The notes below the pieces were generated by a model. The model did no database searches, had not been told where the DNA came from, and worked only from the letters and a program-made list of their open reading frames with translations. A stretch of DNA of 64,000 nt from Candidatus Doudnabacteria bacterium (GTDB lineage: Bacteria > Patescibacteriota > Doudnabacteria > UBA920), in NCBI GenBank assembly GCA_016218585.1, contig JACRDK010000031.1:65764-129763 (forward strand), given 5' to 3'. This document shows, one piece after another, positions 9,960 through 54,596 of the stretch. Positions within the stretch are counted from its first letter, which is position 1, and every line of letters starts with the position of its first letter. The position numbers and the translations under genes are program-made.

Positions 9960-9992
9960 ATTTTGATTATATCATTTTTTAACTCAACATTA

Positions 9993-10572: not shown

Positions 10573-10595
10573 GTTGTTCTGTACCACGGTTTTAC

Positions 10596-11423: not shown

Positions 11424-11496
11424 AACCGTAGCAAACTCCTCTTTTTGATTTGGTCCCAAGGGTAAGATTCCCAAAAGACCCTTTAGTCTAGCAAAA

Positions 11497-11650: not shown

Positions 11651-11702
11651 TGTTGATTGGAAGGAATTGGAGCAATATTAAGATTATTGCTGGTATTTGC
11701 TG

Positions 11703-13013
11703 TTAGTAGTCATTTACTTTAATTTCTTCTTCGCCATAAACCCTATGACCAATTATTTTTCCGCCGCGTCGTTCAATCAGTTTATACATTGAGCTACTAA
11801 GTTCTCGTCCTGTTCTTTTATCAATCAAATGTTCGTAACCGGCAATATCTTGGCCAATAAGAAGGTCGTCGCGCAAAATTAACGATTTATAGGAAGATGA
11901 CAATTCTTGGCCAGTATTACGGTCTAATAAACGCTGGTAGCCGGCCATTTCGTTGGCAACAGGGAGATTACCCATAATGTTGATTTGCTTATAAGACCTT
12001 GAAAGGTCACGGCCGGTATTTGTGTCTAGAAGTCTTTGATAACCGCTAATGTCGGTTGCAATTACAAAATCGCCAATAATATCAATTTTTTTATAAGAAC
12101 TAGAAAGCTCTCTGCCAGTATTTCCATCAATTAGTCTTTGATAACCGACAATTCCTGTGCCTACATAATAACGGCCGTACTGCTGAATATCCTTGTAAGA
12201 AGAACCTACCGAAGAGCCGCGTTCGTCTACCAAACTGACGAACGAGCCGGTTCGTCTTATTGTAAAATGGCCTTGTTGTGGACTCTGTTCTTCGCGCCGT
12301 GCAGAATAGCTTTCCGAACTTTGTGGCTCTTGATGCGTGGTACTTTCTCTAAAAGAAGAACTAAACGCGCGGGAACTGGAACTTGTGCCGCCGGTAGCCT
12401 CGTCCATTCTTCGCTTGGCGTATTCTGAAAAGTTATCAATCTTTGCCTTATTGCGTATTGGGTCTTTGAATAAGTCTTCCAACTCTTGTTTGAGCTGTCG
12501 AGATACTTCGTCCAAAGCGTCCTTTTTGCGTTTAAATTCTTCGCTGCCTGTGTGTCGCTGTTGGTAGCCCGTCCTTGCTCTCGCTTTCTTTAGCTCTTCG
12601 TAAAAATCAAAACCTTTACCAAACCCAGTATCTTTAAAAAAGTCCTCATCAAAACCAAAATCTGAACCGAAGTCCGATTTCGGCCTTTTATGGGACTGTT
12701 CTTGTCTAGGCGGTTGTTGCGTTCGGTGTGTGTCTTGTCTGGGTGGTGTTTCAGCCCCTGAAGCACTAAAACCCAAATCGTAAGTTCTACGCTTTTTTGG
12801 GTCACTTAAAACCTGATAAGCCTCATTAACATCCTTAAATAGTTCTTCTTTCCCTTTGTTAGCAGGTATGTCTGGATGGGTTTCCCGCGCTAGTTTTCTA
12901 AATGCTAATCTTATTTCATCGTTAGTTGCAGCAGGACTAACCCTCAAAACTTCATAGTAGCTTCTTTTGCGATTATATTCTTCTCCGCCTCCAAAACCTT
13001 TTTCTCTTGGCAT
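11703..13013 (-). CDS. J-domain (DnaJ-like) protein with C-terminal tandem 34-aa KWG-like repeats
   Basis: HPD motif (ETHPDIP), YQVLSD..KKRR J-domain; four repeats of [18 protein letters not shown].. Confidence 0.6.
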
Positions 13014-15538: not shown

Positions 15539-15784
15539 ATGTTTTACATCTATGTTTTAAGAAGCAGTAAAAACAATAAACGATACGTTGGTTCGACATC
15601 AAAGTCGCCCGAAAAGCGAACCAGCGAACACAATAATGGTATTAATAGTTTTACCAGGCACAACAAGCCATGGAACCTAATATACCAAGAATCATTTACG
15701 ACAAAAAGCGAGGCTTTAAAAAGGGAAAACTTTTTGAAGTCTGGTCAAGGCCGTAAATGGCTTGATGAAAATATTCGGGAGTAG
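15539..15784 (+). CDS. small GIY-YIG nuclease-domain protein
   Basis: FYIYVLRS..RYVGST motif; stop codon overlaps the first 10 nt of the tRNA. Confidence 0.6.
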   Translation: MFYIYVLRSSKNNKRYVGSTSKSPEKRTSEHNNGINSFTRHNKPWNLIYQESFTTKSEALKRENFLKSGQGRKWLDENIRE

Positions 15785-16177
15785 CTCAGCGGTAGAGCAA
15801 TCGGCTGTAGACACAGGTCTCAAAAGACCAAATTAGCAGCCTTCTCAAGTAATTGAGAAGTGAATAACGAGGTGAATTGTCCCGATGACAAGTCGGGATT
15901 CCGAAATCGCTTGAAATATTAGCGGAGTCGGAACTGGAAACCTAAATTCGTAAATTACGAATATGGCAATCAGCAGCCAAGCCCAGTTCTTTTAAAAAAA
16001 GATCTGGGAAGGTTCAGAGACTATCTCGAAAGAGAGTAGGCCTTAATAAGTTAAGGTCGAAGCCCCTCGTCCCGTACTCTTTTTATAGAGCGGGAATGAT
16101 ATAGTCCACTCCTAATAGAAATATTGGGGTTACGTGTAACCGATGGGTCCTGGGTTCGAATCCCAGCTCCCGAGCCA
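15775..16177 (+). tRNA. tRNA-Asn(GUU) interrupted by a group I intron in the anticodon loop (exons 15775..15808 and 16137..16177, CCA encoded)
   Basis: Acceptor stem TCGGGAG/CTCCCGA, D-arm GCTC-AGCGGTA-GAGC, anticodon stem ATCGG/CCGAT, T-arm CTGGG-TTCGAAT-CCCAG, G73, CCA. The spliced anticodon loop is CUGUUAA, and U1-A72/G73 match bacterial tRNA-Asn. Confidence 0.7.
15809..16136 (+). other. group I self-splicing intron (tRNA-type, IC3-like)
   Basis: Conserved Q-like AATCAGCAGCC (15969), R-like GGTTCAGAGACTATC (16011), S-like AATGATATAGTCC (16095); P7 GACTA/TAGTC. Internal guide GCAGCC (15836) pairs with exon end GGCUGU including a U-G wobble; UUA just 5' of it can pair with 3' exon UAA (P10); terminal G at 16136. 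Confidence 0.75.
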
Positions 16178-17407: not shown

Positions 17408-17830
17408 ATGACAATAAATCCTTGGGTTAATTTTAACGGCAATGCCGAAGAAGCTTTTACTTTTTACAAGTCTGTCTTTGGCGGAGACTTTGCCAAAGTC
17501 GTGCGTTTTAAAGACCTTGCAAGCCCCGAATATCCCGTGGCGGAAAAAGATCAAAATAAAATAATGTTAATTACTTTGCCAATTGGCAAAAGTAATACGC
17601 TAATGGCCAATGACGTTCCGGAAATTATGGGACAAGTAAATGAAAATGAAAACAGAAGCAAAATTGCCATAGCCGCGGACAGCAAAGAAGAAGCGGAAAA
17701 ATTATTTAACGGCCTTTCCGCCGGCGGACAAATAGAAGTACCAATGAGCGACGGTCCCTGGGGCTCGTATTTTGGCATGCTTCGGGACAAATACGGCATT
17801 GAATGGATAATTGAATTTTACTCCAAATAA
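17408..17830 (+). CDS. VOC/glyoxalase-fold protein (PhnB-like)
   Basis: N-terminal MTINPWVNFNGNAEEAFTFYKSVFGG signature. Confidence 0.6.
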   Translation: MTINPWVNFNGNAEEAFTFYKSVFGGDFAKVVRFKDLASPEYPVAEKDQNKIMLITLPIGKSNTLMANDVPEIMGQVNENENRSKIAIAADSKEEAEKLFNGLSAGGQIEVPMSDGPWGSYFGMLRDKYGIEWIIEFYSK

Positions 17831-28112: not shown

Positions 28113-30950
28113 ATGCGCAAAATCACAAGAAAAATGGCTAATATAATAAAAGGCCTGTCGCCTTTTATTACTCTCGTAGTCGTATTATCTCAGTTTGCCC
28201 CATTGCCTAAAATAACGCCTACGGCGCAAGCGGCATCGCCGGTTTCTGTAAACATATACACGATGTCAGGAGACGGCAGCGTTCGCTACTGGAATAACAC
28301 CAAATTTCTTGTGGCCAGAAAAGCAGCAATAGGCAGAAATGTTTCTGCCAGCGGGGTAAATTTAGCCGCCGCTTCAGAAGGCGCTACAGGCTGGAATGAT
28401 GGCACAAATTGGGTAATTACCAGAACATTCCTTCCGTTTGACACTACTTCAATTCCAGCTAACGCAATAATTGATTCTGCCGTACTTAATGTTAAAGGCA
28501 GGTCTTTTGTTAAAGGCGGGCTTGTTTCCTTAGTTGCTTCGTATCAAGTAAACACCAAGACGTTAACGGACAACGATTATGGTTCTGTTATTTTTACCAG
28601 GCAAGCAGCGGACATTGACGCCGGTGTTTTTGGAACAACCGCTTCTATGCAAGCATGGCCGTTGAACACAACGGGAATTGCCAACATTAAAAAAGGTTCT
28701 ATTACTAAATTTGCCATTGTTACGGGGAATGATTTTAGCAACGTGGAGCCGCCAACAGGTGGGGCTAACAATTTCGGTTTAGCTGATATTTCAACTTCTA
28801 GAGCAAATCAGGCGGATAAGCCGTATTTAAAAATTACTTATCACATTAACCCCTACAACACAACAACTCCAACAACAACTCCAACAACAACTCCAACAAC
28901 AACTCCAACAACAACTCCAACAACAACTCCAACAACAACTCCAACAACAACTCCAACAACAACTCCAACAACAACTCCAACAACAACTCCGCCTGTCGCT
29001 CCCCCAGTGTATCCAAAACTTGTTGTTCAATTCCAAAACCCACAGGGCTCTGCTTTTTTCACTCAACCATACCAAAACCTCTCCTTCCCCATTCCTGTTA
29101 ATGGGCAATATTTTTATTCGGTTGGCGATAACAGAACCTCGGCTATACTTTTGCGAAAAGGAATGACTATTTATGTCTGCGACTTTCAAACTTTGGGCCA
29201 AGCTAAAATGCTGCAAATGATTCAGGATATAGGCCTAAGCCCAACAGCAACATACCCTTGGTATATTGACGGCCAATTATCTGACGTTGCAAAAAAAGTT
29301 CAAGCCGCCGGATTAGAACTCAATATAAACGCATCGCAAGGAACATTTATAATTGCCCCTAATGAAGGAATGTTTTTAGTAACTTTAGGGCGCGGAGTAT
29401 TTCAAGAAAAAACCGGAATAAGTTGGGATTCAATAACAAACAGATACAACATGGGCGATGTTTTAAGCGCAGGCTTTACTAGTTCTGCCGCGGATATTTC
29501 CATGTTTATACCGGAATTAGCTTCTAAAGCATCTCTTAATATTATTAAAGATTATCCAAACGGCTCGTACTTTTTCATTAACAATGAAAAAGGAACAGCG
29601 CAACAAATAACACCGGAAGCCGCGGCTGCCCTTAGTGCCGGCAAAATACAAGTAAACTCAATTATTGGAAACTTTGACAGCAGTGTGGCCCAGAGCCTTG
29701 GCCTTACGCTGCTTTCCGGGTTTGACACAAACGCACAAAATTTTGCCACTTACGGCGATGCAAGTGAGGTAATTACCAGAACAATTTCTCCTGTAAACCC
29801 TTATGCAGCCGACCTAACATCTAGCTTAACCGGGAGTATATTTAAAGCACGTTCCTTGGCAGAGAATTTAGCTGCTGCTGGAGCAACCCCAGCACAAATT
29901 GCCGCGCTAGTTGCCGCTGCTCCTACGGCTGCACAAGCTGCCCAAGCTATTTTAGACGCCTCCGCTGGCGGCGGACAAGCCGCTTTGGCAAACGCTAACT
30001 ATATTATTACTCCGAGGCAACTAGCCATTGTAACAGGTGCTCAGTATGTTGATCCTGCGTCACTCCCCCCGGCAACTGTTGTGGCAACCAGCAGTTCAGG
30101 CTCAATCTTAAATGCACCGGAAGCAGGGTCACTGTTTTATTTACCAGACGATAATGGATTCGTATGTTATATTACGACTTGTCATATAGCAAGCACTGAT
30201 TGGACTGGCATTGGCGGAATCCCTCTGCCAATAGTTCCTAACTATTTTTTGACCTGGAATAAGCCGTTTGTTAACTTAGGGACCAACATATTTTCTACAA
30301 CGGCAATAGCCAACAGCACTGCCATAGTATCCGAAGCTGTAAGACTAAATATCCTTAAACAAGTTGAAGCCCAACCAAAATTAATTTATAACAATACTCA
30401 AGTTATTTCTCCAGACAAATGGTACTATCAGAAAGACCCTTACATTTTGAGCAACTACCCAAATACAACTTTGGGGCCTGATGAATACTGCCTAATAACA
30501 AGCGGAGTAATTGCTGGATATTCGATGGTTAAATCTACAACCAGCTCAGTTGTTTCGAGCGGCTCAATTTTGATGGCAAATCTAGAAAATGGCTCGTGGA
30601 CCACCAGTTCATCTGCTTTGCGTGGTATTCAAGAAATCAATAGCAGTCTGGCGGCAGGCATACCAATTATTGTCGGTGTTAACAGATTTAACCAGCCTGT
30701 AGCAAATGGAAAAGTAAGCAATGCAACAGAACACTGGGTTGTAATTGTCGGCTCCTCAGTTGCCCCTGATGGATCTCAATACTACAGATTCTATGATGCC
30801 GGCACAAGTCAAAAAGATAAAGGCACGTCTGACCAAGCGAAATTATTTATAAACAACCTTACTCTAAGACTTACTGGAAAGCGCCAATATATTACAAACG
30901 ACCACCCAGAAGAAGTCACATACACAGTTACGGAAGTTTTACTCCGCTAG
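28113..30950 (+). CDS. large secreted/anchored hypothetical protein (945 aa) with (TTTP)n linker
   Basis: N-terminal signal anchor; Thr/Pro linker; no recognised catalytic motifs. Confidence 0.6.
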   Translation: MRKITRKMANIIKGLSPFITLVVVLSQFAPLPKITPTAQAASPVSVNIYTMSGDGSVRYWNNTKFLVARKAAIGRNVSASGVNLAAASEGATGWNDGTNWVITRTFLPFDTTSIPANAIIDSAVLNVKGRSFVKGGLVSLVASYQVNTKTLTDNDYGSVIFTRQAADIDAGVFGTTASMQAWPLNTTGIANIKKGSITKFAIVTGNDFSNVEPPTGGANNFGLADISTSRANQADKPYLKITYHINPYNTTTPTTTPTTTPTTTPTTTPTTTPTTTPTTTPTTTPTTTPTTTPPVAPPVYPKLVVQFQNPQGSAFFTQPYQNLSFPIPVNGQYFYSVGDNRTSAILLRKGMTIYVCDFQTLGQAKMLQMIQDIGLSPTATYPWYIDGQLSDVAKKVQAAGLELNINASQGTFIIAPNEGMFLVTLGRGVFQEKTGISWDSITNRYNMGDVLSAGFTSSAADISMFIPELASKASLNIIKDYPNGSYFFINNEKGTAQQITPEAAAALSAGKIQVNSIIGNFDSSVAQSLGLTLLSGFDTNAQNFATYGDASEVITRTISPVNPYAADLTSSLTGSIFKARSLAENLAAAGATPAQIAALVAAAPTAAQAAQAILDASAGGGQAALANANYIITPRQLAIVTGAQYVDPASLPPATVVATSSSGSILNAPEAGSLFYLPDDNGFVCYITTCHIASTDWTGIGGIPLPIVPNYFLTWNKPFVNLGTNIFSTTAIANSTAIVSEAVRLNILKQVEAQPKLIYNNTQVISPDKWYYQKDPYILSNYPNTTLGPDEYCLITSGVIAGYSMVKSTTSSVVSSGSILMANLENGSWTTSSSALRGIQEINSSLAAGIPIIVGVNRFNQPVANGKVSNATEHWVVIVGSSVAPDGSQYYRFYDAGTSQKDKGTSDQAKLFINNLTLRLTGKRQYITNDHPEEVTYTVTEVLLR
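28857..28990 (+). repeat. perfect 12-bp tandem repeat (ACAACAACTCCA)x11, encoding (TTTP)n
   Basis: Directly visible in sequence. Confidence 0.9.
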
Positions 30951-33980: not shown

Positions 33981-34892
33981 ATGAAAAAAATAACCCCTCA
34001 CTTATGGTTTGACAAGGAAGCAAAGGAAGCGGCAAATTTTTATGCCAGCGTCTTCCCGGATTCAAAAATTACTTACAATTCAACCCTGCACGAAACGCCT
34101 ACCGACACGGGAGACACCGACGTTGTTTCTTTTGAAATCTCCGGCCAGCCGTTTATGGCAATTAGCGCCGGACCCGTATTCAAACTGAATCCTTCAATTT
34201 CTTTTTTTGTAAACTTCGACCCAGCCAAAGACAGCTCAGCCAAAGAACATTTAACCGAACTTTGGGAAAAACTTTCCCAGGGCGGCACGGCTTTAATGGG
34301 TTTAGACAAATATCCTTTTAGCGAACTCTACGGCTGGATCCAGGACAAATACGGAGTCTCCTGGCAATTAATGCTTACTAACCCATCCGGAGAAGAACGT
34401 CCTTTTATTATTCCTTCCTTGCTGTTTACCGGCGCGGTCGCAGGACGTGCGGAAGAGGCTATAAAATTTTACACCTCAATTTTTAAAGACGGCAAAATCG
34501 GCACTCTCGCCCGTTATGGAAAAGGAATGGAGCCGGACAAAGAAGGCAGTTTAATGTTTGCGGACTTTAATATTATGAGCACCTGGCTGGCGGCTATGGA
34601 CAGCGCGCACGACCATAAGTTTAATTTTAACGAAGCCATTTCACTGCTTGTCCCCTGCGAAAGCCAGGAAGAAATAGATTACTACTGGGAAAAACTTTCG
34701 GCCGACCCCGCGGCGGAGCAATGCGGCTGGCTAAAAGATAAGTTCGGCGTTTCCTGGCAAGTCTGGCCAACGGCTATGGGAGAAATGATGTCTAAAGGCA
34801 CGCCCGAACAAATCGCCCGGGTAACCAAAGCCTTTATGCCAATGAAAAAGTTTAACCTGGAAGAACTGCAAAAAGCCTTTGACGGGAAATAA
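33981..34892 (+). CDS. tandem VOC/PhnB-like (glyoxalase-fold) domain protein
   Basis: Two copies of the same signature as 17408..17830. Confidence 0.55.
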   Translation: MKKITPHLWFDKEAKEAANFYASVFPDSKITYNSTLHETPTDTGDTDVVSFEISGQPFMAISAGPVFKLNPSISFFVNFDPAKDSSAKEHLTELWEKLSQGGTALMGLDKYPFSELYGWIQDKYGVSWQLMLTNPSGEERPFIIPSLLFTGAVAGRAEEAIKFYTSIFKDGKIGTLARYGKGMEPDKEGSLMFADFNIMSTWLAAMDSAHDHKFNFNEAISLLVPCESQEEIDYYWEKLSADPAAEQCGWLKDKFGVSWQVWPTAMGEMMSKGTPEQIARVTKAFMPMKKFNLEELQKAFDGK

Positions 34893-34907: not shown

Positions 34908-34938
34908 AAAAAGCCTAAAATACTTAGGCTTTTTTGTT
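34908..34938 (+). terminator. rho-independent terminator
   Basis: AAAAAGCCTAAAATACTTAGGCTTTTTTG. Confidence 0.6.
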
Positions 34939-35008
34939 TTATCTGCGCGCTACCAAATAACAAGTCTGTTATATAAACAACAAATTGGCAAAGTGCTATA
35001 ATTTAGCT

Positions 35009-36061
35009 ATGAAAAATATAAATTGGCAAAAAGTAGTTACTCGGGAATTCTCATTTTTATGGGCCTCATATACAGCGGAGGCTTATCGAGTCATGCAAAA
35101 ACTGACAGGGACAACACTTAAATTCAACCTCTTTTATACGGAAGGCAGGACGCTTACCATATACCGCGACCCAAAAGATGTTGCCAAATCATATAGGCTT
35201 ATTGAGAAACTTACAAAATCCAATCCCCAAAAAGCTTTGGAAAATATGGATAATTTTGAAAATTATTTTGAGGAAGGAATAAATCTTTTTAAAAAAATTA
35301 CTAATTCAACCAACAACAAGAATCAAATAGCTAAAATGCTTTTAGAATTTGATAAAACTTTTGTAAAGATTATTAGCTATTATTTATTTGTTGTATTTTT
35401 AGGATATGCTGGGGATTCGCCGGCTAATAAAAGATTTATCAGCCTAAACAAAACTCAATTTGAGAGGATAAGGATGTCAACCATGGATGCTGATTTTCAT
35501 ATTTTTTTACCGAAAGCATTTTCAAAATTCAACAACAAATTAAAAAACAATGCTCTATTTATGACGCGCGATGAGTTAATTGGCGCATTAAATAAAAAAG
35601 TTGTCTCGTGGCCTAAAGTAAAGCATAGAAAAAAGAATGCTTTAATAATAGTAAAAGATAGCAAAGAAAAAGAGATTCAATCCAGCAAAATTATATTCAC
35701 GTTAAAAAAAGAACTGTCGCATCTTCGTTTTAATAAACACGCAAAAATCATTAAAGGGGCAGTTGCGTACAAAGGGTTAATTAAAGGACGGGTAATAAAA
35801 ATTTCAAAAAAAAGCGAGTACAACCTAATTTCCAAAGGGGATATTTTAGTTATCTCAATGACCAAGCCGGATATCATCCCCTATTTAAAAAAGGTAAAGG
35901 GTATAATTACCAATGACGGCGGAGCATTATCACATGCGTCAATACTTTCCAGGGAGCTTAAAATTCCTTGTATTGTTGGAACAATGTACGCCACAGATAT
36001 TTTAAACAGCGGCGATTTAGTTGTTCTGGACGCAAACACCGGGATTATCAAAAAACTTTAA
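35009..36061 (+). CDS. PEP-utilizing-enzyme mobile (swivel His) domain protein
   Basis: C-terminal ILVISMTKPDIIPYLKKVKGIITNDGGALSHASILSRELKIPCIVG; ATG 35009 preferred over TTG 34985; TATAAT at 34996. Confidence 0.6.
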   Translation: MKNINWQKVVTREFSFLWASYTAEAYRVMQKLTGTTLKFNLFYTEGRTLTIYRDPKDVAKSYRLIEKLTKSNPQKALENMDNFENYFEEGINLFKKITNSTNNKNQIAKMLLEFDKTFVKIISYYLFVVFLGYAGDSPANKRFISLNKTQFERIRMSTMDADFHIFLPKAFSKFNNKLKNNALFMTRDELIGALNKKVVSWPKVKHRKKNALIIVKDSKEKEIQSSKIIFTLKKELSHLRFNKHAKIIKGAVAYKGLIKGRVIKISKKSEYNLISKGDILVISMTKPDIIPYLKKVKGIITNDGGALSHASILSRELKIPCIVGTMYATDILNSGDLVVLDANTGIIKKL

Positions 36062-36063
36062 TT

Positions 36064-36933
36064 ATGCATTTTTCCGAATTCATAACAATCAAAAGGCGGA
36101 AATTTAAACTTGTTAAAGTTCGCCAATATCAGGACGTAGGAATTTACTGCTATAAAAACTCATTTTGTAGGATTGGTAATGCCGAAGAAATTAACAGGGA
36201 AATTATTAAGCATAACCAAATTTCTTCCCATAATTTTCCCATGGCAAAAATACTTGAGCAGGGCAAATTTAAAAACCAGGCGTACTATATAGAAAGCTCT
36301 TTAGGTAAAAAGCATTTTGGGGAAATTTTTGCCGAAGAGGCAAAGCATCATAAAAAAATCTCCGACAAAACTTTTGACGAATTTTTAAAGATTACTATTC
36401 GGTTCGCCATAGCACAGTTAAGCAGTAAAAAAACCGGCGGGAACTTCCCGGCTTTTGGCAAAGCTATCCATCTAAATGTATTAGCCAAAGAACTTCCGGC
36501 CTACAAAAACAAAATCCTTGGTAAATTTGTCGAAGCTAAAACAAAACTGCAAATTTATCCGTTTGTGTTAACCCACGGAGATTTTAACCCATACAATCTT
36601 TACAAAAAAGGCGTAATAGATTTTGAGCATTTGCATTACGGGCCAGCAGGTTATGACTTAGTAACCAATATTTTTACCGTGTCTTATTTTCCTAAAACCG
36701 GCCGCTATGAATTTATAGCTAAGTATAACTTTAGTAAACACCAAATAAAAAAATATCTTAACGCCTTGGATTCTTTATACCAAAGCCACGGTCTGCCAAA
36801 AATTTCCAGCAATTATAAATACTTTGGTTTTTGCCGCGCAATTTTGCAAACAGTCAGAATGCAAAAATTTCCTAAAATCCAAGAATACAGATACAAAAAA
36901 TTTATAAAAATGTATCTCAAACAAAATAGATAA
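36064..36933 (+). CDS. aminoglycoside-phosphotransferase/choline-kinase-fold kinase (APH family)
   Basis: THGDFNPYN (HGDxxxxN catalytic loop); start 2 nt after the previous stop. Confidence 0.55.
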   Translation: MHFSEFITIKRRKFKLVKVRQYQDVGIYCYKNSFCRIGNAEEINREIIKHNQISSHNFPMAKILEQGKFKNQAYYIESSLGKKHFGEIFAEEAKHHKKISDKTFDEFLKITIRFAIAQLSSKKTGGNFPAFGKAIHLNVLAKELPAYKNKILGKFVEAKTKLQIYPFVLTHGDFNPYNLYKKGVIDFEHLHYGPAGYDLVTNIFTVSYFPKTGRYEFIAKYNFSKHQIKKYLNALDSLYQSHGLPKISSNYKYFGFCRAILQTVRMQKFPKIQEYRYKKFIKMYLKQNR

Positions 36934-37009: not shown

Positions 37010-37639
37010 ATGATACACAAACACCATCTCAAACAAGCCTGCCAAATTTGGCTGCCTATGGCAGTTATTACGGTTATTTTGGCCGGATTAGTTTATGCTG
37101 CCGTGCAGCAAAATTACCGCCAGTCCGCTAATGACCCGCAAATTCAAATTGCCCGCGATGTGGCCGATGCCATTGTCCGCGGCGACGCCCAAGCCGACGG
37201 AATAGTTCCTCCCACCCCAACTTCGGAACTTGCAAACAGCCTCGCAACTTTTGTTGCTGTTTACTCCGCCACCGGCACGCCAATTGGCGCTTCGGTAAGT
37301 GTGGACGGAAAATTGCCAACTTTGCCGGTTGGGGTATTTTTAGCAGCAGCGCAAAAAGGAGAGAATCGTTTTACCTGGCAGCCAAAAACCGGCGTAAGAG
37401 TGGCGGCTGTTTTGGAAAGCTTTAAAGGCAAGGATTCCGGTTACATTTTAGTCGGACGCTCTATTAGAGAAGTAGAAGTGCGCATTGCCCAGCTCACAAT
37501 TATGACAGGCATTGCTACAGCTCTGGCTTTAATTTTAAGCTACCTCGCAGTTCTATGGTATGCCATGCAGGTTATAAAGCCTGAACACCATGAACACATA
37601 CACGAACACACCGAAGAGCATCACCATCACGCAGCGTAA
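37010..37639 (+). CDS. hypothetical membrane protein with His-rich C-terminus (HHEHIHEHTEEHHHH)
   Basis: Two TM segments plus a possible metal-binding tail. Confidence 0.45.
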   Translation: MIHKHHLKQACQIWLPMAVITVILAGLVYAAVQQNYRQSANDPQIQIARDVADAIVRGDAQADGIVPPTPTSELANSLATFVAVYSATGTPIGASVSVDGKLPTLPVGVFLAAAQKGENRFTWQPKTGVRVAAVLESFKGKDSGYILVGRSIREVEVRIAQLTIMTGIATALALILSYLAVLWYAMQVIKPEHHEHIHEHTEEHHHHAA

Positions 37640-45614: not shown

Positions 45615-48600
45615 TTGAAAATAGAAAAGTCAAAATTAAAAAATAGCTTTTTGGGCGGAATGCCGAAAGCAGAAACACTCAAAAAAAATTTGGGGGGTTT
45701 TTTAATTATTTGCATTTCCTTCTCTCAAACCATTGCTCCCTGGGCCATTGCTGCCACCCCGACCGATAATGCAAGCGCAAACTACACCACAGAACAATTT
45801 TATCCGGAACAAATTTTACAAAACTCCGATGACTCTCTCCCCTATGCCTGGGCGGCTTCTGAAAACGCCTTGACTCGCGAGCTTGCAGACAGCGCACCCT
45901 TAGAGCAATTCTCAACAAGCAATTCCGCAGTACTGGCCAATTCAAAAACTGAGGCCACTTCCACCCCGTCAGACTTGCTGGCGGAACAACCTCCTCTTGA
46001 AAATAATAATTCAACTACCACAGCCAGTTCAACCAATATTGAAGTTCCTCCGGCGGTCTCTGAGGCCAGCTCAACGGAAATTAAAATTTACGAGGCGGAT
46101 GTCTCGCCTGCAAACCTCTCGGAGCAAAACCAAATAGAAAATTCCGAGAGCTCCACTTCTCCGGATGTTTTGGATTCTAACCAGAACTCTCCAACCAATC
46201 AAACAAATTCAACTGAAACAGAAATCACGCCAACAACAACTCAAAGCAGCGACACAGAAATTACACCGAGCACAACGCCAAGCAGCGTCACCCCGCCAGC
46301 CGCAACTATTAACAATGAAGACAACTCGTCAACAACGCCGCCGGACATAGCGAGCGCGACGCCGGTGGAAATTTTGCCGACACCGGAACTTAGCGCCCCA
46401 GTTTTGGAATACGGACATTTTACCAGTAGCCAAAATTCCTCGGATAAAAATAATTTTAACAACCCGGCCCAGGCAAGAATAAAACTGTCGTTTGCTTCTC
46501 TGCCGCTTATTGCCGGAAAACTTATTTTAGAATATTCAGTTGCCAGCTCTTCCTGGCAAACTCTCTCGACTGTTGCGCTAGACGGCCAAAGTTCAAATGC
46601 GGAGCGAAACGGCTTCTTTTCTGCCGAACTACCGCAAACAGCTATAAATGATTTATCAACTCTACATGTAAGGCTAAAAATATCCGCCCCGCAAACCAGC
46701 TGGCAAAATATTTTGCCTAGCGAATTATTTTATTTGGATTCTATCTGGCTGGAAGCAGATTACAAAAACACGCTTCCGGAAATTGACGAAGACCAGCTTG
46801 CCGCGACTGACCTTGGCAATTTAACTCCCGAGGAGTTCGCCCATTTAGATTTTTTCAGCCCGCTTATGGAATTATTTATGCCGGCGGACTTATCTGCTAA
46901 TCCAATTACGGTTGGCAGCAAAAAATTAGGCTTTAACTCTCTCCCTTTGCAGATGCTTCCAATAAACGTCTCGACCGACTCGCCAGCTACCAGATTAGGG
47001 CAAAAAGTAACCTATGCCGATGCCTACAAATCCACGGATTTGGAATATATAATGTCTGACTCAGGATTGAAAGAAAACATAATCCTAAAAGATAAAAATC
47101 ATCCGTCTAAATTCCGCTACCTTACCAACTTAGACAAATACGACTCTGTTCAGACCTCTTCTTCGACCATTGCTCTTTTTGCCAAAGGACATAAAGGACA
47201 GCCGCTGTATCAACGCTATGTTCTGTCCGCGCCAATAATGACAGACAGCCAGGGACAGGTTAGTTCGCGGCTTGAATTTAAAGTTAACAAAAATTTAATA
47301 ACTTTAATTCCGGACCCGGCCTGGCTAAAAACCGCCAGCTATCCGGTTACTGTTGACCCGAACGTCAGCTTAAGCGTTTTAAATGTTTCCTCTTTTCCGG
47401 TAGCCGGAGAATTTTGGACTATTGATTTTACGACAGTCGGGCAAGATAACTTAACAATAACCCCGGCTGACCAGGCAACCGTAGATGATATGGAATTTTC
47501 TTCACTAACCTGCGACGGAAATCCAATAAGCGCAAATGTTTCCGCCGGCGGACAGGTGGCGGTTAACAACTGGTCGTGCGACGGCATTGGTGAGGTAAAA
47601 TTCTTGGACAAAAAAACCGGACACCACCAAATGATATTTAATTTTGGCGATGCCAGCCAGGATGCTTATAACGGCTCCAACACTTGGAATGGCTTAGCCG
47701 GAGACAGCAACTGGGCTACCGGCGGCAACTGGTCATTGGGAACAGCCCCGGCGCTGGCTGACGATGTAGTAATTAGCACGGCGGCGACCATAAACATTAG
47801 CAGCTCCACCGCAATAAATTCGTTAACTCTTGGCAACTCCGGCGGCGGAGTAGCGACTGTTTTAAATTTTAATTATGACGCAATTGGCGGACAGCCTCTT
47901 AGCATTACCGGCAACCTTACTGTGTATAGCGGCGCCAGCATTACCCACACGGTAAGTTCTGCCGGATCTGTTGTAGGAACTGTAAATATTTCAACCGGCG
48001 GAAATTCCACCATTACGGGAAGCATTAGCTTAAATGCCAAAGGGTATACCGGCGGTTACGGACCCGGCAAAGGAACCGACGACTTAAGGGCGGGCGGAGG
48101 CGGTTATGGCGGCAACGGCGGAACCGGAAATTTGGGGGCTTTGGGCGGAACAAGCAATGGCTCAACTACAGTGCCAACCTCTTTGGGTTCCGGCGGCGGC
48201 AACTCGGGATGCGGAAGCACCGGCGGGACAGGAGGAGGAGCCTTAAAATTAAGCACAACCGGAACAACAACAATTGCCGGAACTATTACCGCCAACGGCG
48301 GAACCGGCGCAACCCCCTGCTGGAACTCGGGCGGCGGCAGCGGTGGTTCAATTTATATTATTACAAATGTCTTAACCGGAGCCGGAAGCATTACCGCCAA
48401 CGGCGGCGTTGGCGTTACCGGCGGCAACGCCTCAGGCGATGGCGGCGGCGGAAGAATTGCCATAAATTATACCACTGACAATTCCACCATAACTTATTCC
48501 GCTTACAGCGGCGCCGGACAGCTTTATGGAGGAAGCGGGACGGTTTACAAAAAAAGCCAGGCGCAAAGCACGGGCGATTTAACATTTGATAATAATAACT

Positions 48601-51600
48601 TAGGCGGCAGCACCGACACATCTTTTGGCAAAAGCATTTTAGGTTCCGCCTCTTATAATTCCATTACAATAAAAAATTCTGCCTCATTATATTTAACCGC
48701 GTCTTCGGCGACTGCCACAACTTTAACTCTTTCTAACAATGGCTTATACGATGCCAAAGCCAGCACGACTTTAAGCTACTCAACTTTGAACTGGGGCGGC
48801 ATTATTGTTGACAGCGGAGGAACTTTGCCGGTTTTAAATCAAAATCAAGACATAACTATTCCAACCAGCTCCATATTGTCATTTAATGTTTTAAGCGGAA
48901 CCCGCACTTATAACAATGTAACCGTAAATGGAACGCTTACCAACACCGCAAATTCATCCGCAACAACAGGCACGGTTTCTTTGTATAAAATAAATTGGTC
49001 AGCAACTAATAATTTAACTGTTGGTCCTTCGGGCAGCATAAATGTTGACTCAAAAGGTTATCCTGGCGGCGCAGGCCCCGGAGCAGGCGGCACCGGAACT
49101 CAGGCGGGCGGCGGCGGCTACGGCGGCAAAGGCGGGGCGAGCCCAACCCCGGTAGCCGGAGGCGTTACTTACGGCTCAACATCCAGCCCTGTTAGCCTTG
49201 GATCGGGCGGCGGCAACACCGGGTGCGGCACTGTCGGAGGAATTGGTGGCGGCGCTGTTCAATTAACAGTTAGCGGAACCACGACAATTTTAGGAACTAT
49301 TTCCGCCAACGGCGCCAACGGCGGAACTTACCCTTGTTGGAACTCCGGCGCGGGAAGCGGCGGCTCAATTTTTATTACTACTAGCGGTCTTGCCGGAACC
49401 GGCACGGTTTCCGCTAACGGCGGAAGCGGAGTAGCCGGAGGCAGCGCTTCCGGTGACGGCGGCGGCGGCAGAATTTCTATTATTGCCACAACTAATTCCG
49501 CCAGCCTTACCAGAACTGTAAACCCCGGAACATCATACACCGCCGGAGCGCCCGGCTTGGGAACAACTTACCCGACTGACTTTCCCAGTATGTCCACCCA
49601 GGCGGTATCCAATAACATTACAGGAACGTCCGTTACCGGCAATGGGACAATTAACTCCATAAATTATTATCCCATAACTCAGTACGGCCATGTCTGGTCA
49701 ACCTGGGTCAATCCAACCGTACCAAACACAGATATTACTGACGGCGGATTCGGCACAGCGACATCTTCAAAATACAACCAAGGCGTGGTAGCTAATGCCT
49801 TTGACAACAGCACCAGCACTTTTTGGGGATCGGACCAAGGAACTCCTTACGATGTAGAGTATGACTTTGCTACAACTACGGTAGTAAATAAATACATTAT
49901 TATTTCTTCGCCTTCCGGTGCGCCTACCGACTCGCCAAAGGATTGGCAATTCCAGGCTTGGGATGGAGCTTCATGGGTAAATTTGCAATCCGTTTCTTCA
50001 CAAACAGCCTGGGGTAATACCGAATCAAGAGCTTTTACTTTAGTGAACACCACGCCATATACTAAATACCGCCTATACATTACCGCCAACAACGGCGGCG
50101 GCTGGACCAGGTTTGCCGAATTTCAAATGTTAAATACTTCCAGCAGCGTAGCGGCCAATGGCGCCACTACCACTCCCGGAGCATTTACGTCTAATATTTC
50201 CGGGCTGAGCCCGAACACAACTTACTACACCCGTTCTTATGCCACCACCCAAGCGGGCATTGCTTACGGCGACAACATTTCCTTTAGTACCGGTAATGCC
50301 AACAACGCCCCAAACTCCCCCTCTTCTTTAGGTCCCAATAATTTTACCAGTAATACTTGGACAACTTCTACCGCGCCGACTTTGACTTTTAATTTAACCG
50401 ATCCGGACGGCAGCGATACCGTAAAGTACAGAATAATTTTAGACAACGACAGCAATTTTTCTTCACCGTTAATAGATTATACTTCCTCGCTGCAATCACA
50501 AGGAGCCGCCAGCTTTACGGTTGGCCAAAGCGCCGGCAGCGGCAGCTACTCCATTGGCACTGCCGGGCAAACCCTGTCTGACAATAGTTCATACTACTGG
50601 GAAGTCCAAGCCATAGACAGCAATACCCTTACCTCATCATTTACCGTAGCAAATTCCGGAAGCATAGCTTTTAAAGTTGACACCACGGCCCCGGTCGCGG
50701 GAACGGCAAACTTTGGCGCGATTACAGAAACATTATTAATTGTAACTTCCAGCGGATCTTCAGATGCCGGCTCGGGAATTGCCAGCTACTACTATAGAAA
50801 CTTTACCAACTCTACCACTTACGGGCCAAATCTTTCCGCTTCTTGGAATGACAGCGGACTAACCCCAAACACGCAATATTCATTCAACATAACCTTAACT
50901 GACGGCGTAGGTTTAACTTCCACCACCGCCACATCCAGCGCTTACACTCTTGCCAACATTCCATCCAGCCCGACAACCACGGTAATTTCCAATTCCTCAA
51001 TTTTGCTTTCTTGGAATAATAATTCAAACCCGGCCAATACCGAATACTACGCGGAAAATTCAACCAGCGCATTTAACTCCGGCTGGATTACCGGCACCAG
51101 TACGCTCTTTACCGGCTTGTCCTGCGGCACCTCGTACACTTTTCACGTTCGGGCACGCAATGCTGTTGGAACCGTTACTTCTTATAGCGCCTCTGTTAGC
51201 CCTTCCGCTTCACCTTGCAATAACAATCCCAACACGCCTAGCTCTCTAGGCTACAGCCAATACACTAATGGCGGATGGACAAATCAATCAACGCCGATTT
51301 TGGCATTTAGCTTAACTGATTCAGATGCCTCGGACACTATTAAATACCGGGTGCAAGTTGCAACCAGCAGCGACTTTTCCGCATTGGTGGCAGACTATAC
51401 TTCTCCCCTGCAAGCACAAGGAGCGCAAGCTTTTACCGTTGGACAAGCAACCAGCACCGGCAGCTACGCGGTTGGTTTTGCCGGACAAACTTTGGCGGAT
51501 AATTCAAACGGTTATTATTGGCGGGTAATGGCCATAGACAACAGTTTAGCAACTTCATCCTGGGCCAGCGCAGCCGGCGGAGCGGTTGCTTTTAAATTAG

Positions 51601-54596
51601 AAACCGTGGCTCCGACAGTTGGAAGTTTGAGCGTTACCAGCACAACTACCAATGCCGTATCTCTTTCATTTAGCGGCGCAAGCGATTCAGGCTCCGGCTT
51701 AACAGCCACGCCATATATTTATTTCAACACCAGCAATTGGAATTCATCCGGCAATACCGCAGCCACTACCTGGACTAATTCCGGGCTTGCTGCGGGAACT
51801 TACTCCTATAAAGTTAGGGTAACTGACAATGCCGGAAACTATACCGAAGCTTTATTGCCTCAAACAGTAACTGTCTCAGGCGACGGTGGGGGCGGCGGAG
51901 GCGGCGGCAGCGACCCATGGACCGGCGGAGTCACCAACGGCTTTAGCGTATTTATAAACCAAAATGATTCCATAACAAATACTAACAATGTAACGCTGCA
52001 GTTAACCGGCCAACCCGGCACAACGCAGATGTTAATTTCCAATCTGTCTAATTTTTCCGGCGCCAGCCTAGAGCCGTATGATACCACAAAATTCTGGGAT
52101 CTTTGTTCCGGTTTGGGCAGCTGCCTAAATGGCACTTACACCGTTTACGCAAAATTCTATAATTCTTTAAGCCAAAGCTCGGGCACTGTTTCAGACAGCA
52201 TAACTTATCAAATTCTTAACAGCTTAAATCCGGGCACTTTATCCTTAACCGGCGTCAGCACAAGTACAGCAAGCATTTTAATTAGCGGCTCGAGCGACGC
52301 AGTTTACGGCTTAGCCGCAAGCCCTTACACTTTTATTAACCGTACCAACGGAAATCAGTCTGCTACCAGTTCTGTCTCATCTTGGATAAATACCGGGCTT
52401 ACTCCAAATACCCAATACTACTATTATGCGATTGTAGGAAACGCCAATTCCACTTACGGGTACACTTCAGATATTAGTGCTTATACTTTAGCCAACCCGC
52501 CAACCTTACTCGCAACAACTTCTATTACCAGCTCTTCAATAGGACTTGCCTGGAGCGCAAACAACAACCCCGTTGGAACCGAGTACCAAATTCTCAACCA
52601 AACTGCCGGCACCTCCTCCGGCTGGATAACATCTACCAGCACTACAATAAGCGACTTAACCTGCGCCAACTCTTATTCTTTTAAAGTTAAAGCGCGTAAT
52701 GCTAACGGCGTAGAAACAACATACTCAAATCTAATTACGGAAAGCACTTCCGCCTGCCCTGTCACGCCGCCGCCATCAGGTGGAGGCGGTGGCGGTGGAG
52801 GCGGCGGGCAGCCGGTAGTCCCGCCAACGGACACAACCCCCACGCCGGCCCTTGTTTGTCCCGCTCCGGGCGAGGATGAATTTAACGCCTGTTTCTATAA
52901 TAGTATGGATTTAAGCTCTCCTGCGGCGACCGGAACCACAAAAGAAATTAATTTTGATTGGGGTTTCGGCTCCCCCGCAACCGGAGTTAGGGTTGATAAC
53001 TTTAGCGCCCGTTGGCAAGGTTATTTTAATTTTGAAAACGGATTATACCGTTTTTCCGCCACTAGCGATGACGGAGCAAGAGTTTATGTTGACGACCAAT
53101 TAGTTATTAGCCAATGGAATGACCATCCGGCTACCAGATATACAAATGATATTAGGCTCTCCGCCGGCAGGCATTATGTCTTAATGGATTACTATGACAA
53201 TATGGCCAGCGCCATAGCCAAACTTTCCTGGCAAAAAATAATAGCTTCTCCGGCAACTTCAACTCCGCCGCAAACGCCTCCGCAGACTCCGCCAAGCACC
53301 ACTCCGACAAATCCGCAAACCAGCACCAACCCGAGCACTCCGACAAATCCGCCGGTTGTTGTAGTAACTCCTCCGGTAAGCACTACAATAATTCCGCCAA
53401 CTGCGCCAATTACAAACCCTTCCCCCGCCACATCTGTCACCCCCACAGTTCCAAACACCGACACCAAACTCTCTCTTCCGACTATTGAGCTGCCTGACCT
53501 AAGCGGCATTGGCAATGAAGTAAAAATTCTTTCCAGTTCCGTTCTTTCTACTTCTCTGCTCCAGGCAAAGAAATTCTTTTCTTATGCTTTAGTCGAGCCG
53601 GTAAGCTCACTAGTGGGAACAATGTTTAAAATTCGCAACTCCTCGCACACAGCCGTGGGCGTAACTGCTTTAACGCTCGCGCCGGCAAGTTTTTACCTGG
53701 AATACTCCTTAGCCAGCTACGGCTTAAACATAAATGCCGCGGGAACTTTTGCGGACATTTGGCTTAGATTATTGCAATGGTTCTACGGCCTCCTTGCCAT
53801 AACAGGACTCAAGAGAAAACGCCGCTACTGGGGAACGGTTTATGACAGCGAAAGCAAACAACCGCTGGACCCGGCGATTGTAGAGTTAATTGACCCCGCC
53901 ACAGGAAAAGTTATTGAACAAAACATTACCGACATGCACGGAAGATTTGGCTTTTTAGACCGACCGGGAAAGTTTATTATTCGTTCTACCAAAACCAATT
54001 ACCGCTTTCCTTCGGAAATAGTCTTAGGAAAAACCGATCTGGTTTTCGACAACCTCTACCACGGAGAAAAATTGGAAATTGCTTCCGATAACGATATTAT
54101 CACCCCAAATATCCCAATGGATCCAATGGCGTTTGATTGGAACCAAATGGATAAACAACGGGTGGTAAAAATCAACCCCCGCATGGAATATATTTTCCAT
54201 ATAATTTTGCAAACTCTATTTTGGTCCGGCGCGCTGTTTGTGCTGATTAATTTTATTCTTCTGCCAAACTTGTTCAATTCAATTTCCGCTTTGTTCTATG
54301 TTGTTATGGTAATTATGCGCAAACTTATTCCCCATGCCCACCTATGGGGCCGAGTTGTTTTCCATAACGGCGAAAGAGCTAACCATCTTCTGCTTGAACT
54401 CCACCCGGTAAAAATCCCGACCGTGGTAACCGGCAGAGCTGTAAGCGCCGAAAGCGGCAAATTCTTCTTAAAAGCCATGCCCGGAAACTACATACTAACC
54501 GTAAAAAAAGTAGACGGACTTAACAACACCATACTTTATAAACAGGAAGTCACAGTCGGCAAAGAAGGCGTTGTAAACGAAATTATCAGCTTATAA
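45615..54596 (+). CDS. giant multidomain surface protein (2993 aa)
   Basis: N-terminal TM anchor, Ser/Thr-rich stalk, duplicated Gly-rich beta-helix-like modules, F5/8 discoidin-like domain (about 49780..50130), FN3-like modules, PA14-like domain (about 52985..53230, FSARWQGYF..GARVYVDDQLV), PT-rich linker, C-terminal TM helices with two carboxypeptidase-regulatory-like beta-sandwiches; TTG start 8 nt after AGGAAAA. Confidence 0.7.
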   Translation: MKIEKSKLKNSFLGGMPKAETLKKNLGGFLIICISFSQTIAPWAIAATPTDNASANYTTEQFYPEQILQNSDDSLPYAWAASENALTRELADSAPLEQFSTSNSAVLANSKTEATSTPSDLLAEQPPLENNNSTTTASSTNIEVPPAVSEASSTEIKIYEADVSPANLSEQNQIENSESSTSPDVLDSNQNSPTNQTNSTETEITPTTTQSSDTEITPSTTPSSVTPPAATINNEDNSSTTPPDIASATPVEILPTPELSAPVLEYGHFTSSQNSSDKNNFNNPAQARIKLSFASLPLIAGKLILEYSVASSSWQTLSTVALDGQSSNAERNGFFSAELPQTAINDLSTLHVRLKISAPQTSWQNILPSELFYLDSIWLEADYKNTLPEIDEDQLAATDLGNLTPEEFAHLDFFSPLMELFMPADLSANPITVGSKKLGFNSLPLQMLPINVSTDSPATRLGQKVTYADAYKSTDLEYIMSDSGLKENIILKDKNHPSKFRYLTNLDKYDSVQTSSSTIALFAKGHKGQPLYQRYVLSAPIMTDSQGQVSSRLEFKVNKNLITLIPDPAWLKTASYPVTVDPNVSLSVLNVSSFPVAGEFWTIDFTTVGQDNLTITPADQATVDDMEFSSLTCDGNPISANVSAGGQVAVNNWSCDGIGEVKFLDKKTGHHQMIFNFGDASQDAYNGSNTWNGLAGDSNWATGGNWSLGTAPALADDVVISTAATINISSSTAINSLTLGNSGGGVATVLNFNYDAIGGQPLSITGNLTVYSGASITHTVSSAGSVVGTVNISTGGNSTITGSISLNAKGYTGGYGPGKGTDDLRAGGGGYGGNGGTGNLGALGGTSNGSTTVPTSLGSGGGNSGCGSTGGTGGGALKLSTTGTTTIAGTITANGGTGATPCWNSGGGSGGSIYIITNVLTGAGSITANGGVGVTGGNASGDGGGGRIAINYTTDNSTITYSAYSGAGQLYGGSGTVYKKSQAQSTGDLTFDNNNLGGSTDTSFGKSILGSASYNSITIKNSASLYLTASSATATTLTLSNNGLYDAKASTTLSYSTLNWGGIIVDSGGTLPVLNQNQDITIPTSSILSFNVLSGTRTYNNVTVNGTLTNTANSSATTGTVSLYKINWSATNNLTVGPSGSINVDSKGYPGGAGPGAGGTGTQAGGGGYGGKGGASPTPVAGGVTYGSTSSPVSLGSGGGNTGCGTVGGIGGGAVQLTVSGTTTILGTISANGANGGTYPCWNSGAGSGGSIFITTSGLAGTGTVSANGGSGVAGGSASGDGGGGRISIIATTNSASLTRTVNPGTSYTAGAPGLGTTYPTDFPSMSTQAVSNNITGTSVTGNGTINSINYYPITQYGHVWSTWVNPTVPNTDITDGGFGTATSSKYNQGVVANAFDNSTSTFWGSDQGTPYDVEYDFATTTVVNKYIIISSPSGAPTDSPKDWQFQAWDGASWVNLQSVSSQTAWGNTESRAFTLVNTTPYTKYRLYITANNGGGWTRFAEFQMLNTSSSVAANGATTTPGAFTSNISGLSPNTTYYTRSYATTQAGIAYGDNISFSTGNANNAPNSPSSLGPNNFTSNTWTTSTAPTLTFNLTDPDGSDTVKYRIILDNDSNFSSPLIDYTSSLQSQGAASFTVGQSAGSGSYSIGTAGQTLSDNSSYYWEVQAIDSNTLTSSFTVANSGSIAFKVDTTAPVAGTANFGAITETLLIVTSSGSSDAGSGIASYYYRNFTNSTTYGPNLSASWNDSGLTPNTQYSFNITLTDGVGLTSTTATSSAYTLANIPSSPTTTVISNSSILLSWNNNSNPANTEYYAENSTSAFNSGWITGTSTLFTGLSCGTSYTFHVRARNAVGTVTSYSASVSPSASPCNNNPNTPSSLGYSQYTNGGWTNQSTPILAFSLTDSDASDTIKYRVQVATSSDFSALVADYTSPLQAQGAQAFTVGQATSTGSYAVGFAGQTLADNSNGYYWRVMAIDNSLATSSWASAAGGAVAFKLETVAPTVGSLSVTSTTTNAVSLSFSGASDSGSGLTATPYIYFNTSNWNSSGNTAATTWTNSGLAAGTYSYKVRVTDNAGNYTEALLPQTVTVSGDGGGGGGGGSDPWTGGVTNGFSVFINQNDSITNTNNVTLQLTGQPGTTQMLISNLSNFSGASLEPYDTTKFWDLCSGLGSCLNGTYTVYAKFYNSLSQSSGTVSDSITYQILNSLNPGTLSLTGVSTSTASILISGSSDAVYGLAASPYTFINRTNGNQSATSSVSSWINTGLTPNTQYYYYAIVGNANSTYGYTSDISAYTLANPPTLLATTSITSSSIGLAWSANNNPVGTEYQILNQTAGTSSGWITSTSTTISDLTCANSYSFKVKARNANGVETTYSNLITESTSACPVTPPPSGGGGGGGGGGQPVVPPTDTTPTPALVCPAPGEDEFNACFYNSMDLSSPAATGTTKEINFDWGFGSPATGVRVDNFSARWQGYFNFENGLYRFSATSDDGARVYVDDQLVISQWNDHPATRYTNDIRLSAGRHYVLMDYYDNMASAIAKLSWQKIIASPATSTPPQTPPQTPPSTTPTNPQTSTNPSTPTNPPVVVVTPPVSTTIIPPTAPITNPSPATSVTPTVPNTDTKLSLPTIELPDLSGIGNEVKILSSSVLSTSLLQAKKFFSYALVEPVSSLVGTMFKIRNSSHTAVGVTALTLAPASFYLEYSLASYGLNINAAGTFADIWLRLLQWFYGLLAITGLKRKRRYWGTVYDSESKQPLDPAIVELIDPATGKVIEQNITDMHGRFGFLDRPGKFIIRSTKTNYRFPSEIVLGKTDLVFDNLYHGEKLEIASDNDIITPNIPMDPMAFDWNQMDKQRVVKINPRMEYIFHIILQTLFWSGALFVLINFILLPNLFNSISALFYVVMVIMRKLIPHAHLWGRVVFHNGERANHLLLELHPVKIPTVVTGRAVSAESGKFFLKAMPGNYILTVKKVDGLNNTILYKQEVTVGKEGVVNEIISL

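Follow-up and report, generated by a model that had tools for sequence, protein, structure and literature searches.

How does a protein that carries a phosphate-relaying histidine, and no domain of its own with which to load it, come by its phosphate? The question is raised by two adjacent genes in a 64,000-nucleotide stretch of a Candidatus Doudnabacteria genome (contig JACRDK010000031.1, positions 65,764 to 129,763; assembly GCA_016218585.1), hereafter referred to as the window. Gene 1 ends in the mobile swivel domain of phosphoenolpyruvate (PEP)-utilizing enzymes. Gene 2, which follows after a gap of 2 nt (36062-36063), encodes a kinase of the aminoglycoside phosphotransferase (APH)/choline-kinase fold, and an earlier note on this DNA had taken this kinase for the ATP-binding partner of the swivel protein. 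Our results point elsewhere. We consider it rather probable that gene 1 is a compact H/A-type subunit (like HpeH, CreH and PpsA) of a two-component small-molecule dikinase that is charged in trans, and that gene 2 is independent of it. The ATP-binding partner of gene 1 is likely a separate ATP-grasp protein of the PPDK_N type encoded elsewhere in the genome, and not gene 2. Such a split architecture, which the earlier note did not recognize as a described system, is in fact known from PpsAB, CreHI and HpeHI, two-component dikinases in which one subunit holds the substrate and swivel domains and the other the ATP-grasp domain, instead of an APH-fold kinase (PMC12167813).

Pfam domain identification placed the swivel domain (PF00391, PEP-utilizers) at aa 275-345 of gene 1 (E 9e-24, 83 bits against a cut-off of 23). 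Beyond it nothing exceeded the threshold, neither PPDK_N nor a PEP-binding TIM barrel, so that the description of gene 1 as a swivel-histidine protein devoid of both ATP-grasp domain and PEP-binding barrel was borne out. Having no ATP- or PEP-binding domain of its own, gene 1 must be charged in trans. The signature of swivel domains, T/SxxGGxxxH (PMC12167813), is intact in gene 1 as T301-NDGGALS-H309, and the histidine lies within the segment NDGGALSHASILSRELKIPCIVG. In the alignment of the gene 1 family (A1, 46 sequences) 17 columns, spanning both domains, are invariant. Among others, the swivel domain contributes H309, G304, G305, R315 and E316 to these columns, and the N-terminal domain contributes R12 and R207, with W6, K8, E13, R155 and D160 nearly invariant in the latter.

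Altogether, some 60 full-length homologues of approximately 350 aa were found, with conserved ends and 36-59% identity, nearly all of them in Patescibacteria genome bins (e.g. Magasanikbacteria, Falkowbacteria and Parcubacteria). An AlphaFold2 model of gene 1 reached a mean predicted local distance difference test (pLDDT) score of 93.6. When the N-terminal domain (aa 1-245) alone was searched against 1.84 billion representative sequences only 20 clusters were retrieved, almost all again of about 350 aa, with neither an APH fusion nor an informative distant relative among them. One homologue of 474 aa (P0013) carries extra swivel domains (three PF00391 stretches in all) after a normal 350-aa body, and no kinase. 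In four Falkowbacteria-like loci a protein of about 190 aa recurs beside the gene 1 orthologs; it matches no Pfam family, and the window contains no copy.

These properties also bear on the idea of gene 1 as the remnant of a decaying PEP synthase or three-domain dikinase. Its swivel domain is indeed closest in sequence to that of PEP synthase, and fused three-domain relatives exist. A family of full-length proteins with conserved ends and with invariant residues across both domains, together with the confident fold prediction, the intact motif and a promoter-like site of its own, nevertheless makes decay improbable in the extreme. The truncated PEP synthase pseudogene that the earlier note had named as grounds for refutation was rejected in view of the conserved 350-aa form.

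Profile and structure comparison place gene 1 among the relatives of rifampin phosphotransferase (RPH). Its model finds its best Foldseek matches in the RPH structures 5fbu, 5fbt and 5fbs (E 4e-11 to 9e-10), and in the sequence profile aa 181-350 align with RPH residues 702-866. The two are connected over a greater length by fused proteins from bacteria of the Candidate Phyla Radiation (CPR). A1 aligns in full length to residues 332-672 of a 673-aa CPR protein found in locus L049 (hhalign 99.95%, E 8e-38), with the N-terminal domain of gene 1 falling on residues 332 to ~590, and residues 19-330 of the same protein constitute a PPDK_N domain (E 7e-98). Seven fused CPR proteins align with RPH-Lm in one collinear stretch, 6-707 to 4-866 (E 6e-122; 5fbs, 5hv1), which spans their ATP-grasp, middle and swivel regions, while PEP synthases match them in the ATP-grasp and swivel parts only. 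This collinearity and the modest structural scores, with no match at residue level, suggest that the whole N-terminal domain of gene 1 may be homologous to the rifampin-binding domain. Gene 1 is thus best read, from sequence comparison, as a novel compact substrate subunit of split-RPH-like type, a variant of the described split dikinases that appears to be confined to CPR bacteria and a few DPANN-labelled genomes.

The ATP-grasp counterpart was sought in 78 genome loci encoding gene 1 relatives. The commonest non-swivel neighbor there, present in 15 loci, is a protein of approximately 320-340 aa with a PPDK_N domain (PF01326, E 5e-104), and PPDK_N, either standalone or fused, occurs in 28 of the 78. 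A search with one standalone ATP-grasp protein yielded a 312-aa family with 72-89% identity across the 120 best clusters (P0179-P0298), as against only 30-50% among its presumed swivel partners. Several genomes hold both this protein and a gene 1 ortholog. In CP066698.1 the two (P0271 and P0022) are situated on the same contig approximately 135 kb apart; a 911,224-bp contig carries P0202 together with P0012, and a 677,688-bp contig P0192 together with the ortholog in L002. The genome bin (metagenome-assembled genome, MAG) SO_2017_LW4_128 contains P0179 (L037) as well as the ortholog in L007. The ATP-grasp gene of CP066698.1 (L092 8001-8939) is clustered with three swivel paralogues, a His_Phos_1 gene and a HAD gene; the cluster adjoins type IV secretion-like genes (PrgI, TraC-like and TraG).

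From homology we infer both the charging in trans in this genome and the chemistry that would follow. A standalone PPDK_N ATP-grasp protein of about 312 aa, encoded elsewhere, would charge His309 in trans, converting ATP to AMP and Pi and placing the beta-phosphate on the histidine, as in RPH and PEP synthase. The swivel domain would then turn about its linkers to meet the helical N-terminal domain of the same protein, where a small-molecule acceptor, presumed to be bound there, would be phosphorylated, with AMP and Pi as the overall products.

The earlier note's account of the second gene, i.e. an APH/choline-kinase-fold protein with the motif HGDFNPYN a mere 2 nt downstream, agrees with what we found. 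PF01636 (APH) matches with 30.2 bits against a cut-off of 23.2, the motif occupies aa 171-178, and the catalytic core HGDFNPYN...IDFE is intact, with H171, G172, D173, N178 and D186 invariant in 37 homologues (alignment A2). The AlphaFold2 model (pLDDT 95.8) shows the bilobal kinase fold and matches APH(3')-Ia (4fex) with a Foldseek E of 8e-8. In total 42 homologues of approximately 290 aa were identified, among the matches found from Patescibacteria only. At aa 36, in the predicted beta-3 strand where the ATP-anchoring lysine is usually located, almost all members have an arginine and at least one (P0156) a lysine, an assignment made from the alignment and the predicted strands only. Sugar or metabolite kinases (AmgK, methylthioribose kinase and 3csv) are the nearest weak sequence matches. 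Membership in a named aminoglycoside-resistance APH class was rejected, as no resistance model in NCBIfam was matched (the best hit being AmgK at E 0.048) and as identity to solved APH structures is 11-15%. Gene 2 is most likely an independent ATP-dependent kinase with a hydroxyl-bearing substrate of its own. Judging from their homologues, both genes belong to conserved families and are neither chance open reading frames (ORFs) nor pseudogenes. Since a KwaB gene precedes the gene 2 ortholog in L080 the PADLOC defence models were consulted as well, and neither protein matched any of them.

Does the pair recur? The earlier note had itself tied its proposal to co-occurrence of the two genes, and this was not found in other genomes. 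A hidden Markov model (HMM) of the gene 2 family had no match in the 78 loci, nor, at E<=10 and with filters off, in 11 loci of close gene 1 orthologs. After removal of duplicates, none of 12 distinct gene 1 ortholog loci besides the window contained a gene 2 relative, and none of four distinct gene 2 ortholog loci (P0122, P0128, P0134 and P0125), whose contexts differ from one another, contained a swivel protein. L088, L089 and L090 lack a gene 2 ortholog, and L088 and L090 have no PF01636 gene at all. Large contigs agree with this. Gene 1 orthologs occur on contigs of 977,025 bp (a complete Falkowbacteria chromosome), 911,224 bp and 300,461 bp, none of which is among the 42 listed gene 2-family matches, and the 787,846-bp contig with the closest gene 2 ortholog is absent from the listed gene 1 matches; drawn from match tables, this shared-contig comparison amounts to a crude phylogenetic profile. 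Fusions of gene 1-type and gene 2-type domains were not found among either family's matches.

APH-fold genes of other kinds do occur beside swivel genes. In L089 an APH-fold gene (PF01636) is found directly upstream of a close gene 1 ortholog (54% identity), as is a further gene whose 136-aa product is little more than a swivel domain (L089 2653-3063). Apart from the catalytic loop, the kinase itself (268 aa, L089 3138-3944) shows no relationship to gene 2 (BLAST E 0.06, hhalign probability 1%). A motif scan of the 1.01 Mb of loci revealed two further APH-like genes adjoining swivel genes, in L014 and L076, and all four APH-like kinases are mutually unrelated. Detection relied on the gene 2-family HMM and a regular expression for the catalytic motif, not on a full Pfam scan, and the expression missed at least one divergent APH (a second one in L079), making the count of APH-fold neighbors a lower bound. 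Four APH-like genes among approximately 900-1000 ORFs in about 1 Mb are not clearly above chance for such a common family, and swivel and APH-fold genes may be loosely associated in function.

With these data the roles that gene 2 might play for gene 1 can be weighed. The earlier note's proposal, a new two-protein system in which the kinase phosphorylates His309 and gene 1 relays the phosphate to a substrate, draws on the 2-nt spacing on one strand behind a single promoter-like site, on the lack of an ATP-binding domain in gene 1 and on the APH-fold gene upstream of the L089 ortholog. The last of these is no relative of gene 2, and the pair is missing from the 12 other distinct ortholog loci of gene 1 and the four of gene 2 as well as, by the match tables, from the 977-kb chromosome, the 911-kb contig and the 788-kb contig, with no fusion protein joining the two. 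As the pair is not conserved, its adjacency is no mark of a phosphotransfer partnership. Furthermore, APH-fold and other protein-kinase-like enzymes transfer the gamma-phosphate to hydroxyls, while swivel histidines receive their phosphate from ATP-grasp or PEP-binding domains, and the catalytic core of gene 2 is complete and needs no carrier. We therefore regard a relay between the two proteins as very unlikely, and the kinase lost its proposed place as ATP-binding partner. A regulatory pairing, in which gene 2 would switch gene 1 off by phosphorylating a serine or threonine in its swivel domain (e.g. S308), much as the PPDK and PEP synthase regulatory proteins act on the Thr two positions before the catalytic histidine, seems less likely still. 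The genes adjoin, and S308 directly precedes H309. The known regulators PDRP/PSRP (DUF299) are of a fold different from APH, and, again, the pair is not conserved. Regulatory phosphorylation beside the swivel histidine does have precedent in PPDK, PEP synthase and PtsI, yet the canonical position is Leu307 in gene 1, which thereby resembles the HpeH-type proteins without that Thr (PMC12167813).

More room is left for a functional guild, i.e. that both enzymes act on identical or related small molecules (e.g. host-derived metabolites or antibiotics) within an accessory detoxification or salvage island and pass no phosphate to each other, although this too we hold to be unlikely. It is in line with the APH-fold kinases of different subfamilies that adjoin swivel genes in L089, L014 and L076, with neighborhoods of both families that are rich in VOC/glyoxalase, GNAT, methyltransferase, HAD, His_Phos_1, EamA and ABC exporter genes, and with the tandem two-domain VOC/PhnB-like gene directly upstream of gene 1. 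The number of APH-like genes noted above and the mutual unrelatedness of the four kinases speak against it, and since about one gene in four in the seeded loci is a swivel gene, adjacency to one is to be expected. Most likely, then, the adjacency of genes 1 and 2 is particular to this genome, and the two are unrelated enzymes that happen to be neighbors.

Charging of gene 1 in trans by an ATP-grasp protein, the reading preferred here, has several observations against it as well. No PPDK_N gene is present in the 64-kb window or within approximately 6 kb of any close ortholog, which means that the partner in this genome is assumed. Unrelated APH-fold subfamilies adjoin swivel genes in the three loci just named. 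The Foldseek TM-scores between gene 1 and RPH are just 0.36-0.41, the middle of the alignment used for comparing the fused proteins with RPH (A3) consists mostly of gaps, and the substrate domain of gene 1 is about half the size of those in HpeH and RPH. Finally, the N-terminal ~180 aa have no sequence-detectable similarity to the rifampin-binding domain, and the A1 profile found nothing credible for aa 1-180 among PDB sequences. Of the rifampin-type similarity that the earlier note proposed to look for, the sequence alignment shows the part covering aa 181-350, and RPH folds are the best structural matches.

A broader arrangement may be considered, albeit tentatively and with somewhat less confidence than even chances would convey. 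In this, CPR and DPANN organisms would have a hub-and-spoke system, where one conserved 312-aa ATP-grasp protein charges many diversifying swivel-histidine proteins, each with its own small acceptor-binding domain, and gene 1 would be a satellite member. The outcome would be combinatorial phosphorylation of many small molecules, for e.g. salvage, detoxification or host interaction, in organisms of minimal metabolism. At least three swivel-histidine genes were counted in 39 of 79 sources (the 78 loci and the window). We found no account of a hub-and-spoke system or of swivel-histidine arrays in CPR, DPANN or Patescibacteria in the literature.

Arrays of swivel genes, and long fusions of them, are a feature of the loci in their own right. 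Tandem arrays on one strand, with five to nine paralogues of approximately 340-540 aa that each have a helical domain and a C-terminal swivel-histidine domain, occur in CPR bacteria and DPANN archaea (L012, L014, L018, L032, L033, L050, L058, L062, L065, L072, L073 and L076). In L063 an in-frame fusion ORF of more than 4012 aa (1-12036) fills the first 12,036 of 12,309 bases and contains 13 HMM stretches in addition to PPDK_N. Further giant fusions of 1600-2030 aa were found in L046 (2-6040), L069 (4324-10410), L070 (1642-6510) and L022 (3721-8991), and it is chiefly genome bins with a DPANN label that contain such fusions. That CPR and DPANN genomes carry these subunits in tandem arrays and in giant fusions may be new to the literature. 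Other swivel-histidine genes are scattered singly, as gene 1 is. Genes for His_Phos_1 and HAD proteins also recur beside swivel genes, namely in L055 (8340-9359), L058 (9989-11098), L018 (10335-11096), L088 (877-1737), L092 (1490-2443) and L068 (376-1017), and their recurrence suggests dephosphorylation of either the products or the phospho-histidine.

The coordinates of the two-gene unit in the window are collected in Table 1. For both genes upstream TTG starts are possible, and the homologue alignments A1 and A2 favor the ATG in each case. The promoter-like site ends 6 nt 5' of the gene 1 ATG, and the transcript predicted from this consensus match only would be nearly leaderless. Between this site and gene 2 a single terminator-like match exists (35950-35970). 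As it lies inside the coding sequence of gene 1 and is weak (seven pairs, three of them G-C, with a T-poor tail), co-transcription of genes 1 and 2 in this genome is plausible, and on these signals, all of them consensus matches only, probable.

Table 1. Features of the two-gene unit and its 5' flank, numbered by window position.
Feature	Position	Strand	Description
Terminator-like hairpin	34908..34934	+	11-bp stem then T-run; ends upstream VOC/PhnB-like gene; 5' boundary of two-gene unit
Promoter-like site TAAACA-17-TG-n-TATAAT	34974..35002	+	Extended -10 TG; 10/12 consensus matches
Gene 1	35009..36061	+	ATG 35009, TAA 36059-36061; 350 aa; putative compact H-type subunit (substrate domain + swivel-His) of an RPH-superfamily dikinase
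Gene 1 N-terminal domain, aa 1-245	35009..35743	+	Mostly helical, two small beta-sheets; presumed acceptor-substrate domain
Swivel (PEP-utilizer mobile) domain, aa 275-345	35831..36043	+	PF00391 E 9e-24; PEP synthase 8a8e E 1e-39
His309 codon CAT	35933..35935	+	Predicted phospho-carrier; motif T301-N-D-G-G-A-L-S-H309
Gene 2	36064..36933	+	ATG start; 289 aa; predicted APH/choline-kinase-fold small-molecule kinase
Gene 2 catalytic loop H171-G-D173-x4-N178 and metal-binding I-D186-F-E188	36574..36627	+	Invariant columns in A2

Directly upstream of gene 1 is the tandem two-domain PhnB/VOC-type gene mentioned above (PF06983, glyoxalase superfamily; window 33981-34892, plus strand), and a second PhnB/VOC-type gene (PF06983) is found at 17408-17830 (plus strand). 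Both are typical of small-molecule detoxification-type proteins. The other genes of the window fit a CPR genome, with a pilin-like protein, glycosyltransferases, polysaccharide deacetylases and a surface protein of 2993 aa that contains PA14, fn3 and F5/8-type-C domains (45615-54596, plus strand). Downstream of gene 2 lies a 209-aa membrane protein (37010-37639, plus strand) that ends in a His-rich tail, HHEHIHEHTEEHHHHAA. The gene at 28113-30950 (plus strand) encodes a secreted protein of 945 aa that has a long (TTPT)n linker and matches no Pfam family. Another feature is a group I intron at 15836-16128 (plus strand; Rfam RF00028, 59.1 bits, full-length model), situated 52 nt downstream of an 81-aa GIY-YIG endonuclease ORF (15539-15784, plus strand); no tRNA or rRNA host gene for it was detected across the window.

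If proteins of this kind do phosphorylate many small molecules at the expense of ATP, which is converted to AMP, they would account for a sizeable unannotated share of metabolism or defence in reduced genomes, and the wider superfamily of gene 1 is heavily expanded in CPR and DPANN genomes around a single conserved ATP-grasp protein. On account of their kinship with RPH, members of the gene 1 family are candidates for the modification of antibiotics in environmental resistomes. Had an APH-fold kinase charged the swivel histidine, this would have amounted to a new type of phosphotransfer; the evidence argues against it.

How, then, does gene 1 compare with the systems already described? With PEP synthase, PPDK and enzyme I of the PEP-dependent phosphotransferase system (PTS) it shares a homologous phospho-histidine swivel domain, the highest similarity being to the central domain of PEP synthase (E 1e-39). 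Unlike PEP synthase and PPDK, it has neither an N-terminal ATP-grasp domain nor a C-terminal TIM barrel for PEP or pyruvate, and the regulatory Thr two residues before the histidine is replaced by Leu. All NCBIfam matches of gene 1 are partial and far under their cut-offs, for PEP synthase (NF005057, 104 bits against 598; TIGR01418, 91 against 740) as well as for RPH (NF041857, 44 against 999; NF000283, 31 against 1700), and with PF00391 as the only domain present an assignment to PEP synthase, PPDK or full RPH was rejected. RPH (5fbs, 5fbt, 5fbu and 5hv1) provides the best structural matches, the alignment of aa 181-350 with residues 702-866 and, through the fused relatives, collinearity over its full length. 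RPH differs in that one chain of approximately 865 aa includes the ATP-grasp domain as well as a rifampin-binding domain of some 430 aa, and nothing points to rifamycins as the substrate of gene 1. Gene 2, for its part, resembles the APH/choline-kinase family in its bilobal fold, in a PF01636 match above threshold and in its HxDxxxxN and IDxE motifs. It is set apart from characterized APHs by the low identity, by matching no resistance model and by a distribution that, among the matches found, is limited to Patescibacteria.

The closest likeness is to HpeHI, CreHI and PpsAB. There, too, a substrate domain is followed by a C-terminal swivel domain with T/SxxGGxxxH, PPDK_N resides in a separate protein of approximately 320-390 aa, and relatives of gene 1 adjoin such ATP-grasp genes. 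The catalytic histidine is indispensable in those systems, and phosphate can be passed from one small molecule to another by the H subunit on its own (PMC12167813). The substrate domain of gene 1 is shorter than that of HpeH (~245 aa against ~500 aa), with no detectable similarity in its N-terminal ~180 aa. Its ATP-grasp gene would not be adjacent, given a distance of approximately 135 kb in the single complete genome examined, and its hosts are CPR bacteria without a context of aromatic catabolism. Lastly, in place of the 1:1 pairing of HpeHI, CreHI and PpsAB, the relatives of gene 1 have one ATP-grasp gene for several to many H-type paralogues.

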